A stretch of 16,334 nt of DNA from a virus (lineage: Duplodnaviria; Heunggongvirae; Uroviricota; Caudoviricetes), in the IMG/VR virus record IMGVR_UViG_2706794682_000018; one strand, 5' to 3'. The position numbers were made by a program, and so were the translations under genes. Below the pieces are notes generated by a model. That model made no database searches, was not told where the DNA came from, and was given only the letters and a program-made list of their open reading frames with translations. Below are positions 1-14,782 of this stretch, piece after piece; the first letter of the stretch is position 1, and each line of letters begins with the position of its first letter.

Positions 1-465
1 AGACGGATACACACCTTTCGTACACTTTGCCCATACCGGCGGCTTACCATCCGGATACTGGATCTTGTTTGTAAAAACCTCGCTTTCAATAAATTTTTTT
101 CCGTGACAGCAGGGGCACTGTTTTTTGCTCGCCGCGCTACGGGCATAATCTTCAAACGCATACGAAGCCATAATACGCATCACTGCCGGTTTTATTTCTG
201 CCGGGAGTTTTCTTAACGCCGCCACGCGATCACACCGACTGAGTGCATATTCTGTCAGCAATTCTGTTGCCCGCTCTCTGTCATTCATACTAATGCCCAT
301 TTTCCCAAGGAACGCAGAAACCCCCATCTCAGCCCGATTCTGTGTCATGCCCTGCGCGGCCATCACATCAGTGATACTCAGCGCATCTTTCGACGTTGAG
401 GCCGATGCATCAGTCAGGCCGGGGGATTTTGGGGAGTAGTATTTCGGTAAATCTTCCAGTTTCAT
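1..465 (-). CDS. Late-gene antitermination protein Q, N-terminal 155 codons; 3' end lies beyond position 1
   Basis: Minus-strand ATG at 465-463, then 155 sense codons with no stop down to position 1 (checked codon by codon). Translation contains CPCCHGKK...C, a Q-type zinc-finger-like motif. Start overlaps the rusA stop (ATGA). Position after rusA matches lambdoid nin-Q modules. Confidence 0.7.
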   Translation of the reverse strand, partial: MKLEDLPKYYSPKSPGLTDASASTSKDALSITDVMAAQGMTQNRAEMGVSAFLGKMGISMNDRERATELLTEYALSRCDRVAALRKLPAEIKPAVMRIMASYAFEDYARSAASKKQCPCCHGKKFIESEVFTNKIQYPDGKPPVWAKCTKGVYPS

Positions 466-842
466 TTTTTGACCTGCCCTTCAAGCATTATGGGATAAAT
501 CTTCACCCCCAGACGTCCACCAGATACTGGCTGAGCACGAACGATATTGATTTCATCAAACTGCTCATCGTCCATTAGCAACCCCGCATGCGTCAGCGCA
601 TCCAGCGGCGCTTTCAGAATATTGTCCAGGTCACGGCGGCGCTTATCCGGTGGTTCTGCAATAATTTTTATTGCCAACCTTCCGGACAGGCTTAATTTCA
701 GCCGCTGCTGGCGAACAATAAGCGCCACTGCCCGGCGATAACGCTCCCCGGCTTTTGATACAAAATATGTGCTGCCACGACGACGCCAGTAAGTGTTCAC
801 CGTCGGCGGGTAAGGTAAAACAAATTCTATGCGCTCGGTCAT
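462..842 (-). CDS. rusA: Crossover junction endodeoxyribonuclease RusA (Holliday junction resolvase)
   Basis: 126-aa ORF with ATG at 842-840. Sequence (YPPTVNTYWRRRG ... RRRDLDNILKAPLDALTHAGLLMDDEQ) matches the RusA family as I recall it. Located just upstream of Q as in lambdoid prophages. Confidence 0.85.
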   Translation of the reverse strand: MTERIEFVLPYPPTVNTYWRRRGSTYFVSKAGERYRRAVALIVRQQRLKLSLSGRLAIKIIAEPPDKRRRDLDNILKAPLDALTHAGLLMDDEQFDEINIVRAQPVSGGRLGVKIYPIMLEGQVKK

Positions 843-1901
843 TTATGCTTTCCACTTCAGAACACCCGAATTTCTCGCGTGCATTAAAAAACGAATCAGC
901 AACAACAGCTGACTGCCGTGTTTCTCTTCAAAATCTTTTACTCCGGCATGTAGTTCGTTACGGCATTTACGGCATAACGGAATAACAAACAAATCATCAG
1001 CCTTTGTTCCCATCCCTCCCAGTCCATGACCAATGATGTGATGCGGATCATCTGCCTGATTGCCACACGTCATGCATTTCTGCGTTTTTACCCAGCGCGT
1101 GTATACAGGCATCTCTTCCCGTTGTGATTTCTGGCGCTGGAGATACTGAGCCGGTGACTCCGGATCAACGGCAATGCTGACCACCGTCTTTTCCTGTGGT
1201 GGGTTCTGTTGCTGGTGGACGTGAGGCAGTAACGCAATATTTTTTGTGCGCTGCTTCAGTATGCTGGTGGCTGTCTGCTCTCCCGGTATGATGTCGCTTT
1301 CACTGTACACAGAGCGAATTTTTTCCGCACGCAACCCCAGCGAACGACGTAATACCGCTTCCGGTAGCGCGTCCGCCACCTGATTGCGGACCGCCCACCA
1401 GGATAATTCAGCCAGAGATAATTCACGCTCCTGCGTACCGCTTATTGCGTGACCGATGACGTCAATCATCCATGCTGACAGGTTTTGATGAGCAAGTTGC
1501 TCGAGTGATTCGGATGTCTGGTCACGCAGCTGGTTGTCGCAGTGCCAGCACAACACCATTGCGCCGGTACCATAACGGTGAATGACGGTTTCGCTGTGAT
1601 GATAATCGCCGTGTGGCCACTGGCAGGATTTAATATGGCGCAACAGCCAGTCAGACAATGCACCAGCACCACCAGCAGCACGAATCACCCGTGCGTTACT
1701 GAAAAACGGCAGCAATGTTTTGTCTTCCACCAGCGGCTGGCGAGCGGCAGGAACGACCCCGGACGGCAGATTACGCATGCTTTTTGGTTCCGGCTCCACC
1801 AGTATTCTGCCGTTATGGAATGCTGACATTGATTCACGGCCTGGCTTAACGATAACCAGACCGAGTTCCGGTACCAGAACAGGTCGAAGTAATACCCGCA
1901 C
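843..1901 (-). CDS. DUF968-family prophage protein (YdfU-like) with C-terminal Cys/His motif
   Basis: 352-codon ORF whose stop abuts the rusA ATG (TAAATG). The longest ORF starts at GTG 1901-1899 with GGAGGT upstream; in-frame ATGs further in are alternatives. C-terminal C..C...HH...CRKCRNELH looks like an HNH-like zinc motif. Size and position next to Q resemble YdfU of Qin-type prophages (from memory). Confidence 0.7.
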   Translation of the reverse strand: MRVLLRPVLVPELGLVIVKPGRESMSAFHNGRILVEPEPKSMRNLPSGVVPAARQPLVEDKTLLPFFSNARVIRAAGGAGALSDWLLRHIKSCQWPHGDYHHSETVIHRYGTGAMVLCWHCDNQLRDQTSESLEQLAHQNLSAWMIDVIGHAISGTQERELSLAELSWWAVRNQVADALPEAVLRRSLGLRAEKIRSVYSESDIIPGEQTATSILKQRTKNIALLPHVHQQQNPPQEKTVVSIAVDPESPAQYLQRQKSQREEMPVYTRWVKTQKCMTCGNQADDPHHIIGHGLGGMGTKADDLFVIPLCRKCRNELHAGVKDFEEKHGSQLLLLIRFLMHARNSGVLKWKA

Positions 1902-1976
1902 ATTACCTCCAGATCCGTTGCTGGAATGTGCGGGACGGACGCGTTGGCCGTTCGGAGTAAGGGAGCCTGACGGAGA

Positions 1977-2258
1977 TTATCCAGTGACGGTAGTCGAGGC
2001 TAAGGGCTTTTTTAACCTCGCATCCGCGCCTGCGGTAACACTGAATGAGCCATTCGGCCTGTTCTTCAGTGCATGGGGGATGCTGGTACCAATCAGATTT
2101 AAATGCGTGAGAGCGCCGCCCGTGCCTGCTGGCAAAGACGGCTGAATTATCAGAATTGTGTAGTCTGGAAGGCAGTGGCTGACAATAGCGCCATTCTCAA
2201 CGCGCACAGTATAGAGGCCATCTTCACTAAAAATTTCACGTAATTCTTCGATTTTCAT
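1977..2258 (-). CDS. Small ORF, copy 1 (MKIEELREIFSEDGLYTVRVENGAIVSHC...); only the first ~29 codons are shared with copy 2; occupies the position of rem in Qin-type prophages
   Basis: ATG at 2258-2256 preceded by GGAAGGA 8 nt upstream. The first 29 codons are shared with the ORF at 3497, with 4 synonymous and 2 conservative changes. The C-terminal 64 aa is unique and low-complexity, so true length is uncertain. Confidence 0.35.
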   Translation of the reverse strand: MKIEELREIFSEDGLYTVRVENGAIVSHCLPDYTILIIQPSLPAGTGGALTHLNLIGTSIPHALKNRPNGSFSVTAGADARLKKPLASTTVTG

Positions 2259-2379
2259 CAACAGAATCCTTCCAGATAAATAGCACTCCCCTGTTCGGGG
2301 TCCATCCCTCTTCTCCCTGCGCGCTACTTAAGTATTTTTGATTCTATTCCGGCACCATCTAAAACTTCAAACGCGTTGA

Positions 2380-2410
2380 AAATAAAAACAAAAACCCGCC
2401 GAAGCGGGTT
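2380..2410 (-). terminator. Intrinsic terminator downstream of hok copy 1
   Basis: On the minus strand, stem CCCGC, loop TTCG, stem GCGGG (plus 2395-2408), followed by TTTTTGTTTTTATTTT. It lies about 70 nt after the hok stop. Confidence 0.6.
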
Positions 2411-2478
2411 AAGTGTGGGTGCATTGAGGATGCCTGCCCCATCAGAGGTGGCGAGGGATTTCTCCCCCGCCTGGTCTC

Positions 2479-2634
2479 TTACTCCTCAGGTTCGTAAGCT
2501 GTGAAGACAGCGACCTCCGTCTGGCCGGTTCGAATTCGTACCTCGCAGAGGTCTTTCCTCGTTACCAGTGCCGTCACTATGACGGTTAAACAGATGACGA
2601 TCAGGGCGATTAACATCGCCTTTTGCTGCTTCAT
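2479..2634 (-). CDS. hokD: Hok/Gef-family type I toxin, 51 aa (HokD/RelF-like membrane peptide)
   Basis: MKQQKAMLIALIVICLTVIVTALVTRKDLCEVRIRTGQTEVAVFTAYEPEE, which I recognise as the Hok family (hydrophobic helix plus conserved Cys). ATG at 2634-2632 with AAGGAG 9 nt upstream. The 70-aa ORF in the track is an in-frame upstream extension. Confidence 0.85.
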   Translation of the reverse strand: MKQQKAMLIALIVICLTVIVTALVTRKDLCEVRIRTGQTEVAVFTAYEPEE

Positions 2635-2693
2635 AGCCTGCTTCTCCTTGCCTTTCGGCATGTAAGAGGCTAACCTACATGTGCAAAGCATGA

Positions 2694-2783
2694 AATTGGC
2701 CTCAGATTAATGTTAAGCGTCTTGCCGGACGCGTAATGTTAACTGGGGCTTTTCTCTATCTGCCTTTTGGTGTTCATGCCTGA
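2694..2783. repeat. Inverted repeat arm A (90 bp, perfect), inside the hok copy 1 leader region
   Basis: Exact reverse complement of 2916-3005, verified base by base at both ends and at internal checkpoints. Pairing breaks at 2693/3006 and 2784/2915. Confidence 0.9.
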
Positions 2784-2915
2784 GACAGATAGCCTCAAGC
2801 ACCCGCTGCAATTCTACTTAACTCTCCTTTTCCCGCAAACCGTTTTTATCCCCAGCGGCAAATCGAATACACCACCAGCGCCACCGCCATCGCAATTCCT
2901 ACCGTTGTTAATGCT

Positions 2916-3005
2916 TCAGGCATGAACACCAAAAGGCAGATAGAGAAAAGCCCCAGTTAACATTACGCGTCCGGCAAGACGCTTAACATTAATCTGAGGC
3001 CAATT
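2916..3005. repeat. Inverted repeat arm B (90 bp, perfect), 132 bp from arm A
   Basis: Exact reverse complement of 2694-2783. It overlaps the last 17 nt of the minus-strand 60-aa ORF 2989-3171. Confidence 0.9.
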
Positions 3006-3171
3006 GCAGGAGTTTGAAAAAACGCTTGTGGAATGCGTAGTTACACACACGCTTAAAGTCTGCGTGTATCCACTCACCTATTTTGATTTGATGCAGAAAA
3101 TCGCAACTCTCCGGCGTCGCCGGGAGAAGTAATCCGGAAGAGGTTTGTTTGACCAGTTGTATATGTGCCAT
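2989..3171 (-). CDS. Hypothetical 60-aa ORF (MAHIQLVKQTSSGLLLPATPESCDFLHQIKIGEWIHADFKRVCNYAFHKRFFKLLQLASD)
   Basis: ATG at 3171-3169 with GGAGAAAG upstream. No family recognised. Its 3' end runs into inverted-repeat arm B. Confidence 0.2.
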   Translation of the reverse strand: MAHIQLVKQTSSGLLLPATPESCDFLHQIKIGEWIHADFKRVCNYAFHKRFFKLLQLASD

Positions 3172-3209
3172 CGGCTTTCTCCGGTGGCACGGTGTTACAC
3201 AGCAGGAGT

Positions 3210-3497
3210 TCAATCCTGCTCAAGATTGTAGATGAGTTTATTCTTCAGCAAAAGCAGAAAACCAGCCTTAAAACCAATCTCTTTCAAAACCCGTAATGAT
3301 GTGACAAATTCGTCCTCACGCAAAATAAAACCGTCCGTCAGAAGTCCATTACAAAAATAAAATAACACAGCACCGCTCTTCCTTTGTTGAGATTGCAAAC
3401 ATCTAATGCGGCAATGGCTGACAATCGCTCCATTCTCAACGCGCACAGCATAGAGGCCATTTTCACTAAAAATTTCACGCAATTCTTCGATTTTCAT
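3210..3497 (-). CDS. Small ORF, copy 2 (MKIEELREIFSENGLYAVRVENGAIVSHC...); shares only its first ~29 codons with copy 1
   Basis: ATG at 3497-3495 with the same GGAAGGA site as copy 1. The 162-bp block 3411-3572 is about 94 percent identical to 2172-2333. The C-terminal tail is unrelated to copy 1. Confidence 0.3.
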   Translation of the reverse strand: MKIEELREIFSENGLYAVRVENGAIVSHCRIRCLQSQQRKSGAVLFYFCNGLLTDGFILREDEFVTSLRVLKEIGFKAGFLLLLKNKLIYNLEQD

Positions 3498-3619
3498 CTT
3501 CAGAATCCTTCCAGATAAATAGCTCTCCCCTGTTCGGGGTCCATCCCTCTTCTCCCTGCGCGCTACTTAAGTGAGTCGATTCTATCTGCGAAGGTGCGCG
3601 AATCAAATTCACCGGAAAT

Positions 3620-3670
3620 AAACAACAAAAAACCCGCCGAAACGCTGAGAGATCACAGCGATGGGCGGGT
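3620..3670 (-). terminator. Intrinsic terminator of hok copy 2 (two-tier hairpin plus T-run)
   Basis: Outer stem CCCGCC/GGCGGG (3633-3638 / 3664-3669) with inner stem CGCTG/CAGCG, followed on the minus strand by TTTTTTGTTGTTTATTT. Homologous to the copy 1 terminator with an insertion in the loop. Confidence 0.5.
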
Positions 3671-3746
3671 TAAGTGCGGGTGCGTTGAGGATGCCTGACA
3701 CATCAGAGGTGGGCGGGGATGGGATCAGCTCCCCGCCCGGTCACTC

Positions 3747-4060
3747 TTACTTCCTGGNNNNNNNNNNNNNNNNNNNNNNNNNNNNNNNNNNNNNNNNNNN
3801 NNNNNNNNNNNNNNNNNNNNNNNNNNNNNNNNNNNNNNNNNNNNNNNNNNNNNNNNNNNNNNNNNNNNNNNNNNNNNNNNNNNNNNNNNNNNNNNNNNNN
3901 NNNNNNNNNNNNNNNNNNNNNNNNNNNNNNNNNNNNNNNNNNNNNNNNNNNNNNNNNNNNNNNNNNNNNNNNNNNNNNNNNNNNNNNNNNNNNNNNNNNN
4001 NNNNNNNNNNNNNNNNNNNNNNNNTGAAGCAGATAGCCTCAAGCACCCGCAGTCATTCTA
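3747..4060 (-). other. Second hok-family locus (paralogue of copy 1) whose coding region and leader are hidden by the N run 3758-4024
   Basis: 3661-3757 is homologous to the copy 1 hok 3' region 2410-2490. A stop TAA sits at 3749-3747 with ..RK just upstream. After the N run, 4025-4057 is homologous to copy 1 at 2780-2815 (CAGATAGCCTCAAGCACCCGC). Confidence 0.5.
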
Positions 4061-4105
4061 CTTACCTCGCCAATATGAAATCAATCAGAAAGGTGCCCCA
4101 TAAAA

Positions 4106-4792
4106 TCACTCCTTCTCTTCTTTACCGTAGTGGAGTTGACCAATTTTGATAAGAGGGCGTCCCTGAGATTTGCGGTGTAGATTGGTATCGCGCAGAGAAT
4201 ACACACAGCCACAATATTCCTGCTGATAGAATTTTTCGCGCTTGCTGATTTCAATCATACGGGACGAGCCGCCCTGCTTGCGCCAGTTATAATCCCAGTA
4301 CACCATGCCCGGATAATGCGCGACGGCTCGCCGCCCACAGTCGTTAACCTGCTGCATATTTTTCCAGCGTGAAATGCCCAGTGAACTGCTGATCACACTG
4401 AAACCATTTTCAGCGGCGTACAGCGCTGTCCGCTCAAAACGCATGTCAAAACACATGGTGCAACGGATCCCTCGTTCGGGCTCCCATTCCATTCCTTTGG
4501 CTCGTTCAAACCAGTTGTCTGTGTCGTAATCAGCATCAATAAACGGCACGCCGTGTTGTTCAGCAAAGCGAATATTCTCATCCTTACGAATTAAATACTC
4601 TTTCTGAGGATGAATGTTCGGGTTGTAGAAAAAGATGGTGTAGTCGATTCCCGAGGCCTGAAGCGCCTCCATCACCTCACCGGAACATGGAGCACAGCAA
4701 GAGTGCAGTAGTAGTTTGTTTGCCCCGTTTGGGAGCTCCAATTTGGGCCGTTTGAAATCAGCAACTGTCATAAATATGTTTATTGGGGTCAT
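4106..4792 (-). CDS. DUF208 / QueH-like (epoxyqueuosine reductase family) Cys-rich protein, 228 aa
   Basis: Clean 228-codon ORF. N-terminal [11 protein letters not shown] and FFYNPNIHP motifs, plus further Cys pairs (RCTMC, EYCGC), match my recollection of the DUF208/QueH family. The assignment is from memory, not a search. Confidence 0.5.
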
Positions 4793-8148: not shown

Positions 8149-8586
8149 GTGAATATCATTGAACTTATGGTTCATGAAGATAAAGCGCGTAAAGAGTTCG
8201 CCAGTAGGCTTGCGCTAGCCTGTGAAAACGCTGGTTATGAACAACATGGAAGGCAGGCAGAAATTGCCCGTCGAATGAAATTAACACCAAAAGCGGTTAG
8301 CAAATGGTTTAATGGCGAAACAATTCCTCGCCGAGAGAAATTAAGGGAATTAGCAACACTCATTGGAACAACACCAACCTATCTTTTGGGAGAGGATACA
8401 GAAGAAAGTGGACAGGTACGTTTCTATCAGGAGTTAAATCCAAGACAAAAAATCATCATTGACCTTCTGGACGAGCTCCCTGACAGTGAGACAGATGAAC
8501 TTTTAAAAACTCTTGAGGAGAAAAAACAGAAGTACAATGCAATTTACGAAGAGCTAGCACGAAAGAAAAAACAAAAAGCCTCTTAA
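8149..8586 (+). CDS. racR: Prophage repressor, XRE-family helix-turn-helix (cI analogue)
   Basis: HTH GRQAEIARRMKLTPKAVSKWFNGE; divergent from the cro-like gene. Start uncertain: GTG 8149 or ATG 8167, neither with a clear ribosome-binding site (possibly leaderless, like lambda cI). Confidence 0.8.
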   Translation: MNIIELMVHEDKARKEFASRLALACENAGYEQHGRQAEIARRMKLTPKAVSKWFNGETIPRREKLRELATLIGTTPTYLLGEDTEESGQVRFYQELNPRQKIIIDLLDELPDSETDELLKTLEEKKQKYNAIYEELARKKKQKAS

Positions 8587-14593: not shown

Positions 14594-14782
14594 ATGTATA
14601 AAATTACCGCCACTATTGAAAAGGAAGGTGGCACTCCTACTAACTGGACAAGATATTCAAAATCTAAACTAACGAAATCAGAATGCGAAAAAATGCTCTC
14701 AGGTAAAAAAGAAGCAGGCGTTTCCAGAGAGCAGAAAGTAAAACTGATAAATTTTAATTGCGAGAAACTTCAGTCCTCGTGA
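14594..14782 (+). CDS. ydaC: YdaC-like small protein, 62 aa
   Basis: ATG at 14594 preceded by GGAGGTG (MYKITATIEKEGG...). Upstream in-frame ATGs at 14582 and 14522 are alternatives. Confidence 0.65.
   Translation: MYKITATIEKEGGTPTNWTRYSKSKLTKSECEKMLSGKKEAGVSREQKVKLINFNCEKLQSS

Follow-up and report, generated by a model that had tools for sequence, protein, structure and literature searches.

Two small ORFs downstream of hok in a tailed-phage contig are very probably copies of the prophage antirepressor gene rem, one full length and one a deletion remnant

[quoted passage not shown] Expression of K-12 Rem derepresses the DicA-controlled dicB promoter 165-fold, and rem from K-12 derepresses dicBp when it is translated from a heterologous ribosome-binding site (PMC10448788). 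In the K-12 annotation, rem (b1561) lies between hokD and ydfU. The antirepressors of the Gifsy and Fels-1 prophages (GfoA, GftA, GfhA and FsoA; Lemire et al. 2011) are likewise small, at 70-90 aa, and likewise act on a short repressor not cleavable by RecA. In the Gifsy prophages the antirepressor gene follows a terminator and precedes a homologue of irsA (DUF1367), and the module carries a LexA box and an upstream dinI, as in Gifsy-2. The antirepressor gene also follows a terminator in the isrK-orf45-anrP locus of Gifsy-1 (Hershko-Shalev et al. 2016), where the upstream ORF combines conserved nucleotides with a variable peptide and has a stop codon that overlaps the antirepressor start. Tum of phage 186 and Ant of P22 resemble Rem in outline, as they inactivate a prophage repressor without cleavage. 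However, they are unrelated to Rem in sequence and size, and Tum is under LexA control and Ant under Arc/Mnt.

We analysed a 16,334-nt stretch of Caudoviricetes DNA (IMG/VR record IMGVR_UViG_2706794682_000018), referred to here in its entirety as the window. A preliminary description had reported two ORFs that share 29 codons with six nucleotide differences and an identical ribosome-binding site. Both ORFs exist as described, and we add that they lie on the minus strand: copy 1 at 1977..2258 (93 aa, ATG at 2258) and copy 2 at 3210..3497 (95 aa). Their first 29 codons align without gaps, the ribosome-binding site GGAAGGA is the same in both, and beyond codon 29 the copies are unrelated. Of the six differences, four leave the amino acid unchanged (TTA/TTG, GGC/GGA, GCT/GCG, CAC/CAT) and two exchange similar residues (D/N, T/A); given that 20% of sites are synonymous, neutral evolution would yield four or more synonymous differences out of six with P = 0.017. 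Across the whole gene, pN/pS was about 0.2-0.5 in every homologue pair. As these values are well below 1 in all pairs, they indicate purifying selection on a real protein-coding gene, which is what the mostly synonymous differences between the window copies had been taken to mean.

The DNA of K-12, O103, copy 1 and copy 2 forms one colinear alignment, and phage records annotate the homologous gene as rem or as a prophage antirepressor. Both copies belong to the same family as K-12 Qin Rem (PF27490) and occupy the same slot, after hok and before ydfU/DUF968 or irsA. The leader and promoter-like site are also alike, and in K-12 Qin as in the window a short DicA-class repressor accompanies rem in the same prophage. 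Judged from sequence, the ORFs starting at 2258 and 3497 are almost certainly copies of rem, an already known prophage gene; the finding is real but ordinary. The small ORF had been regarded as unknown, but it is Rem, an antirepressor that has already been characterised and has a dedicated family in Pfam. The suggestion that copy 1 sits in the rem slot of Qin was borne out, and both copies are rem homologues. The explanation that best accounts for the two together, in which we place high confidence, is that both are rem, with copy 2 full length and copy 1 a dead deletion allele.

Copy 2 is a full-length Rem-family antirepressor gene with an altered tail. It aligns over its full length with K-12 Rem at about 70% identity and with the O103 prophage Rem at about 80%, and matches PHROG 340 with E = 6e-20. 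The exact protein (P0001) carries PF27490 ('Rem') and is present on at least 999 contigs of Shigella and E. coli. Copy 2 differs from K-12 Rem in its frameshifted tail and in a 4-residue insert carried by the 86-aa O103-like branch, of which it is a member. Residues 1-80 are canonical, and up to residue 80 copy 2 retains the C-terminal core GF.LR.DEFVTS, the helix and the AGF that follow. A T4 run (3258..3261, minus strand) then takes the place of the T5 of canonical alleles, as seen in the O103/K-12 alignment and in P0003 against P0001. This loss of 1 nt turns ...GFSAFAEE* into ...GFLLLLKNKLIYNLEQD* and replaces the last six residues. The S-A-F residues that follow the core are nearly invariant and are lost through the frameshift, so the function of copy 2 may be impaired. 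The gene order around it, hok-rem-irsA, is the one usual for a Rac-like prophage, and its place after a terminator and before irsA is shared with the Gifsy antirepressor gene. The irsA/DUF1367 gene that follows (3004..3171, minus strand; Pfam DUF1367, profile positions 1-57 of 198) is truncated past about 56 codons at a rearrangement junction, whereas the related loci L001 and L006 carry it intact.

A candidate target for copy 2 lies 4.7 kb away. The immunity region upstream of copy 2 contains a short non-cleavable HTH repressor of the DicA class together with YdaS-like and YdaT-like genes. The repressor gene (8149..8586, plus strand) encodes 145 aa with Pfam HTH_3 only and no peptidase domain, and the protein shares 30% identity with DicA-type repressors, as well as their C-terminal LxxLPxSE motif. 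DicA-family repressors were also found 4-7 kb upstream of Rem-type genes on IMG/VR contigs. This repressor is the presumed target of Rem copy 2, a pairing that we only infer because identity to the DicA type is just 30%. By analogy with the Gifsy and Fels antirepressors, Rem would bind the repressor dimer and strip it from its operators.

Unlike K-12 Rem, copy 1 is a 29-codon stump. Its surviving rem codons (2172..2258, minus strand) were defined by alignment, and PHROG 340 matches residues 1-29 only. Relative to O103:H2 12009, copy 1 lacks 250 bp directly after codon 29, which took the remaining two thirds of rem, the intergenic block and codons 1-4 of ORF B; alignment with O103:H2 12009 and K-12 places the deletion junction at 2170..2172 (minus strand). 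ORF B, a 92-aa conserved hypothetical protein (phrog_1212), persists as a remnant (1903..2170, minus strand) whose start codon is gone and whose stop codon abuts the start of DUF968/ydfU. Three-frame translation and the O103 12009/K-12 alignment showed that the 64-codon tail of the copy 1 ORF (1977..2171, minus strand) is ORF B read in frame +2. The shared 29 codons would thus be what is left of rem in copy 1, and the tail would be a meaningless out-of-frame reading. This agrees with the expectation that at least one copy was truncated or fused, in this case by a 250-bp deletion and an out-of-frame fusion. The proposed check on which tail is conserved gave a clear division: the copy 2 core is kept in the family, while the copy 1 tail is seen only in the allele cluster of Shigella sonnei. 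The exact copy 1 ORF was found on 679 S. sonnei contigs, in the same context hok-rem'-DUF968-rusA-Q. A functional chimera, in which the N-terminal module of Rem has gained a new C-terminal domain, could be entertained given this wide distribution in S. sonnei, and because the ORF stays open for 93 codons and keeps its promoter-like site, leader and ribosome-binding site. We consider it very improbable. The tail reads a conserved gene out of frame, and a search for homologues of its 64 residues found none beyond the S. sonnei allele cluster. The 29 Rem residues account for just two and a half of the five strands predicted, and neither the conserved DEFVTS core nor the helix is present. In addition, IS elements and pseudogenes are abundant in the copy 1 region in S. 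sonnei. On sequence grounds, copy 1 is a null allele that is common in S. sonnei.

Each ORF had been placed downstream of a hok terminator. This held, but the repeat extends beyond the ORF start and the second hok is N-masked. The repeat is a 163-nt block (2171-2333 against 3410-3572, 94% identical) which reaches about 75 nt upstream of the ATG, and with 3 differences the leader is better conserved between the copies than the coding part; portions of the hok 3' end are also repeated. Upstream of copy 1 lies a hok/sok locus (2479..2804, minus strand), with the Hok CDS at 2479-2634 (Pfam HOK_GEF) and the sok RNA model at 2629-2804 (Rfam, 117.5 bits). Its terminator-like hairpin (2393..2410, minus strand) recurs at copy 2 with an insertion in the loop. 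The second hok locus (3609..4071, minus strand) is visible at its 3' and 5' ends, its middle being N-masked at 3739-4024, and L006 provides an unmasked equivalent. Downstream, copy 1 is followed by ORF B and then DUF968, not by irsA. The tandem arrangement is known from a single draft contig and may have arisen as a chimera during assembly; searches for its junction sequences in IMG/VR and in complete E. coli genomes found no match.

A scan of genome contigs returned only three loci, because the Rem family is nearly confined to Escherichia and Shigella. In its genomic slot in the nin region of Qin/Rac-type lambdoid prophages, hok or another upstream module is followed by rem and then by irsA/DUF1367 or ORF B-DUF968; most often rem comes directly after a hok/sok locus. 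Neither ORF had a hit in local scans of NCBIfam and of a Pfam copy that predates PF27490. An AlphaFold2 model of Rem (pLDDT 74, moderate confidence) had no significant Foldseek match in PDB or BFVD, and a profile search of PDB sequences with Rem found nothing. As a model of moderate confidence that matches no known fold, the structure adds no support to the Rem identity. The Rem profile showed no similarity to Gifsy-2 GftA (hhalign probability 0.3%, HMM score -0.3). A broadened Rem profile matched a 78-aa ORF in the Fels-1 left operon with 25.9 bits; the ORF is presumed to be FsoA from its position, which is that reported for fsoA.

We then considered the region upstream of rem. Promoter-like sites on the minus strand were identified for copy 1 at 2341..2370 (TTGAAG, 18-nt spacer, TAGAAT) and for copy 2 at 3579..3606 (TTGATT, 16-nt spacer, TAGAAT). 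The -10 hexamer and TTGA are kept in upstream DNA that is otherwise unalignable. A sigma-70 promoter dedicated to rem would thus lie downstream of the hok terminator and upstream of the leader. The copy 1 leader (2259..2333, minus strand) comprises the core TAGCGCGCAGGGAGAAGAGGGATGG, a CCCC/GGGG hairpin, an upstream ORF and the ribosome-binding site; that of copy 2 (3498..3572, minus strand) is conserved and also includes the upstream ORF. This ORF has 15 codons in copy 1, where its UGA overlaps the rem AUG (UGAUG), and 14 codons in copy 2, where it ends 4 nt before the rem AUG (UGAAGAUG). Across the family it has 3, 8, 14, 15 or 22 codons, or is fused in frame. In its conserved nucleotides, variable peptide and stop overlapping the antirepressor start it resembles the orf45 type, and the isrK-orf45-anrP and rem mRNAs are both predicted to be translationally closed. 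AnrP, unlike Rem, is a much larger, unrelated protein encoded in the late region, and a search for a counterpart of the isrK sRNA, with complementarity to the rem leader, found none.

Where the Gifsy-type module has a LexA box and dinI, rem has hok/sok and a conserved non-coding leader, with neither LexA box nor upstream dinI. No CTG-N10-CAG was present upstream of either copy, and the best 20-mer match to the consensus was 10-11/20, compared with 17/20 for the Gifsy-2 dinI control. Rfam assigned no family to the rem leader, and an isrK-like Rfam match on the hok 3' end was rejected at 25.8 bits against a gathering score of 50. The energy of a duplex between the hok 3' end and the leader was no better than that of shuffles, and complementarity was absent. 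A reading of the CCCC-GAACA-GGGG hairpin as similar to lambda boxB was dropped, since the loop varies in length (3-5 nt) and sequence from lineage to lineage and there is no boxA.

Constraint at the nucleotide level continues into the gene. Family-wide, synonymous sites are nearly frozen in codons 2-20 and free from codon 21, with common synonymous polymorphism at 1/19 codons (2-20) against 33/66 (21-86; Fisher p = 3.5e-4). Nucleotide-level constraint therefore overlaps coding constraint here, and in the leader and codons 1-20 this extra layer probably governs Rem production. The same frozen sites, together with leader conservation that exceeds that of the coding part and a fold of the leader and first 24 codons better than shuffles (z about -3), could suggest that the 29-codon block is conserved purely as an RNA or DNA element whose protein is never made. 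This is hardly credible: full-length homologues have pN/pS of 0.2-0.5 over the whole gene, the core GF.LR.DEFVTS is kept in distant members with other N-termini, the window copies differ mainly at synonymous sites, and the published activity of the Rem protein on dicBp contradicts it (PMC10448788). The proposal that RNA and not coding explains the conservation thus fails as the sole cause but stands as an additional layer, given the near-invariant synonymous sites of codons 2-20.

Such a layer could consist of mRNA structure acting alongside coding, with the leader and codons 1-20 hiding the ribosome-binding site and AUG and the upstream ORF perhaps coupling translation. In the predicted fold, the 5' AGCGCGCA pairs with codons 17-20 and AGAGG with codons 14-15, burying the SD and AUG; z was -2.9 and -3.0 for the two copies, RNAalifold retained these helices, and the frozen codons end where the closing helix has its last pair. 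The changes seen are mostly one-sided and preserve pairing, the start of the upstream ORF and its SD are invariant while peptide length and frame vary, and isrK-orf45-anrP offers a precedent. However, the 96-nt leader folded by itself does not surpass shuffled sequences. In the K-12 lineage the SD helix contains mismatches and the upstream ORF is just 3 codons long, while the 55-aa MNDKEL subfamily retains no more of the leader than its 5' 45 nt and is missing the partner sequence. No compensatory pairs occurred in 35 distinct sequences; 94% of cells are paired and the long-range helices are nearly invariant, which is neutral either way. We regard this structural account as possible but tentative. 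Slightly less likely, in our assessment, is that the leader and first 20-29 codons are a homologous-recombination junction of mosaic lambdoid phages, kept alike by exchange. Within this island p-distance is 0.00-0.23, against unalignable upstream flanks (0.3-0.55) and divergent downstream ones (0.14-0.51). Relationships of island and flank conflict between pairs (O103 and L016: leader 0.00, upstream 0.52; K-12 and L023: upstream 0.02, leader 0.12), and one and the same island is followed by C-termini of the Rem type or the 57-aa type and preceded by DNA with or without hok. Against exchange, six common deep non-synonymous differences persist in codons 2-20 while synonymous ones do not, which disfavours recent homogenisation, as this would not leave the former without the latter; the invariant -10 hexamer at a fixed distance also points to function.

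For annotation, these results turn two hypothetical proteins into a Rem-family antirepressor with a frameshifted tail (copy 2) and a rem pseudogene (copy 1). Copy 1 also shows the loss of the antirepressor from a prophage that is widespread in S. sonnei. We further put forward, with considerable doubt, a single conserved control unit made up of the promoter-like site, the 75-nt leader and rem codons 1-20, in which a closed mRNA structure and a coupled upstream ORF would keep the antirepressor from being translated until a signal arrives. If true, this would explain the frozen N-terminal synonymous sites and locate where the trigger of Rem-dependent prophage derepression acts. What induces Rem is a question from the 2023 Rem paper, and the block of promoter, leader and N-terminus would mark where that signal must act.

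The ORFs at 1977..2258 (copy 1, 93 aa from its ATG at 2258) and 3210..3497 (copy 2, 95 aa) lie, as do all features under study, on the minus strand. We confirmed the preliminary description of their relationship: the first 29 codons align without gaps, with six nucleotide differences (four synonymous and two conservative, D/N and T/A), both copies have the same ribosome-binding site, GGAAGGA, and the copies are unrelated past codon 29. Since synonymous sites make up ~20% of these codons, at least four synonymous changes among six has P = 0.017 under neutrality. The shared coding segment is indeed 29 codons, but the repeat itself is larger than described, consisting of 163 nt (2171-2333 and 3410-3572, 94% identical) that take in ~75 nt 5' of the ATG. 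In this leader (2259-2333 and 3498-3572) the copies differ at three positions. A hok locus precedes each copy, as noted previously; before copy 1 it comprises the Hok CDS (2479-2634), an Rfam match to sok (2629-2804) and a terminator (2393-2410), and most of the second is masked by a run of 286 N (3739-4024).

The suggestion that copy 1 sits where rem lies in Qin was correct, as the K-12 record has rem (b1561, 83 aa) between hokD and ydfU. K-12 Qin, an O103:H2 prophage and both copies are colinear across the hok 3' end and the leader and into the ORF, and K-12 Rem (MMNIEELRKIFCEDGLYAVCVENGNLVSHY...) belongs to the same protein family as the window ORFs. Precomputed matches to PF27490 (Pfam name Rem) were present on 77/77 database homologues of copy 2, and PHROG 340 also matched; our local Pfam scan gave no match because the local copy lacks this newer model. 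The gene is labelled rem in phage records, and 'prophage antirepressor' in one. Ectopic rem increases dicBp expression 165-fold and causes DicB/DicF-dependent filamentation, with Rem acting against the DicA repressor (Ragunathan et al. 2023, PMC10448788). Only 58 clusters were recovered when 1.84 billion representatives were searched exhaustively with a profile. In distant members the C-terminal core, GF.LR.DEFVTS...AGL, is retained but the N-termini are unrelated, so the N-terminal MKIEELREIF... is confined to the Escherichia/Shigella branch, which contains a Rem type of 83-87 aa and a short 57-aa type lacking ~30 internal residues. A broadened Rem profile scored 25.9 bits against a 78-aa Fels-1 ORF located in the left operon at the published fsoA position, and Gifsy-2 GftA gave no match. 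The AlphaFold model of Rem (pLDDT 74) has five strands and a C-terminal helix, and matched no known fold.

At least one copy had been proposed to be truncated or fused, and this is the case for copy 1, which lacks exactly 250 bp relative to the O103 prophage. The deletion begins one nucleotide past codon 29 and runs through the remainder of rem and the intergenic block into ORF B, which loses its first four codons. ORF B, the gene after rem in that prophage, encodes a 92-aa conserved hypothetical protein (phrog_1212). ORF B in the window has thus lost its start codon, and the 64-residue tail of copy 1 is a wrong-frame reading of it. An identical 93-aa protein is known from Shigella sonnei, on 679 contigs in which the gene order is always hok, this deletion allele, DUF968, rusA and Q, with IS elements close by; window 1-2921 is 99.3-99.6% identical to these loci. 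Residues 1-29 represent just two and a half strands of the AlphaFold model, so the product of copy 1 is unable to adopt the Rem fold. ORF B itself (window 1903-2170, minus strand; locus L002, 3049-3327; K-12 locus L003, about 1806-2090) separates rem from DUF968/ydfU; O103 has it annotated and K-12 MG1655 does not, and its stop adjoins the ydfU start.

Copy 2 is the canonical 86-aa allele (P0003) up to residue 80, where a T5-to-T4 change at 3258-3261 converts SAFAEE to LLLLKNKLIYNLEQD. The resulting allele is frequent in E. coli and Shigella (at least 999 contigs), and in related genomes it is followed by intact irsA/DUF1367, ybcO and a Q-like antiterminator. The K-12-like lineage also has alleles with a frameshifted tail of this kind (..KNKLIYNL..; P0044 and P0045). 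Together, these tails suggest that the T run at the end of rem is slippage-prone. The intergenic block 3' of rem (3174-3209, minus strand) is kept in K-12 and O103 whether irsA or ORF B comes next, and contains a hairpin, GCAGG-N8-CCTGC, without a T run.

At 2916-3008 one nin region is joined to a different one, which leaves the two copies 1.2 kb from each other. The junction consists of irsA/DUF1367 truncated after ~56 codons, a 93-nt inverted copy of a hok 5' segment (inverted repeat 2691-2783 and 2916-3008, 99% complementary) and a 114-aa nin gene of which the truncated 3' end is left. One draft contig (GCA_001251615.1) is 100% identical to the window and is the sole record of the junction-specific product; the junction was not found in 5,426 complete E. 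coli genomes or in IMG/VR. The junction may reflect a rearrangement particular to this strain; alternatively, repeated hok DNA may have led to a chimeric assembly.

Purifying selection on the protein, proposed in the preliminary description, was supported by pN/pS of ~0.2-0.5 in every pair among eight Rem-type genes. In 45 distinct Rem-type coding sequences, common synonymous polymorphism affected 1/19 codons at positions 2-20 versus 33/66 at positions 21-86 (Fisher p = 3.5e-4), and the ratio of synonymous to non-synonymous polymorphic codons was 1:6 versus 33:20 (p = 0.036). This uneven variation argues for nucleotide-level constraint overlapping the first 20 codons of rem. The leader core, TAGCGCGCAGGGA.AAGA.GGATGG, was found in at least 120 IMG/VR contigs, and in nearly all of those listed a recognisable Rem-family ORF follows; these ORFs include a divergent 55-aa MNDKEL type, whose leader is conserved just in its 5'-most 45 nt. 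In all lineages a TAGAAT hexamer lies 13-14 nt 5' of the core with TTGA 16-18 nt further upstream, and the DNA between and upstream of these elements cannot be aligned across lineages. The sites at 2341-2370 and 3579-3606, with invariant TAGAAT, are the only two promoter-like sites detected within 1900-3760. In the MNDKELIA... loci (L056, L064, L079, L086, L117 and L137), the promoter-like site and these 45 nt are all that is shared. No LexA box was found at rem; the control, Gifsy-2 dinI, scored 17/20. The leader also contains a hairpin with a 4-bp CCCC/GGGG stem and variable loop, and five GGA motifs, two of which may be close to the CsrA SELEX consensus.

The leader encodes a short upstream ORF with a strong Shine-Dalgarno sequence. 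It starts at an invariant GGGAUGG, is 3-22 codons long or fused to rem, varies in frame, and in most lineages stops at the rem AUG or shortly ahead of it, recalling orf45-anrP (PMC4825925). The leader and first codons of rem could form a closed mRNA structure, although we hold this reading only tentatively. Predicted folds of the leader plus 24 codons gave z = -2.9 and -3.0 for the two copies, pairing 5' AGCGCGCA with codons 17-20 and AGAGG with codons 14-15, and burying the ribosome-binding site and AUG of rem. RNAalifold retained the same helices, and the closing helix has its last pair at the boundary between codons 20 and 21, the exact point where synonymous variation resumes. However, 35 distinct sequences yielded no compensatory pairs, in the K-12 lineage there are mismatches and the upstream ORF has just 3 codons, and the pairing partner is absent from the MNDKEL type. 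The hok 3' end is also not complementary to the leader, and for this reason a weak isrK match there and at the terminator (2389-2470, minus strand; 25.8 bits versus an Rfam gathering score of 50) is probably structural chance. Recombination-driven homogenisation of the conserved island (leader plus first 20-29 codons) is a comparably likely explanation. The p-distances are 0.00-0.23 within the island, 0.3-0.55 in upstream flanks and 0.14-0.51 downstream, and flank relationships conflict with those of the island, as expected of mosaic phages.

Upstream of copy 2, the window contains an immunity region in which a 145-aa HTH_3 repressor without a peptidase domain (8149-8586, plus strand) faces cro/YdaS-like and YdaT-like genes. 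This Rac-like prophage also carries a queH (epoxyqueuosine reductase) gene (4106-4792) and the RalA antitoxin sRNA (14600-14778; Rfam, 225 bits), both on the minus strand. The repressor is 30% identical over 113 residues to a DicA-type repressor, including the C-terminal LxxLPxSE motif common to DicA, Gifsy-2 GtgR and the repressors of other Rem-carrying phages. As L(F/L)xxLPxSE, it was seen in short repressors of Rem-family and Gifsy-antirepressor phages (the window; L005 635-1042; L004 29-436; L034 1865-2281; L042 3790-4254), and may be an antirepressor contact region. In IMG/VR contigs long enough to judge, a DicA-family gene lies 4-7 kb upstream of Rem-type genes; phages with 57-aa or 55-aa Rem relatives, including the six MNDKELIA... 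loci, have different short HTH_3 repressors instead. This would fit a variable body that sets repressor specificity. Both rem and the rem pseudogene are already known, and the conserved control region of rem is the only lead worth following.
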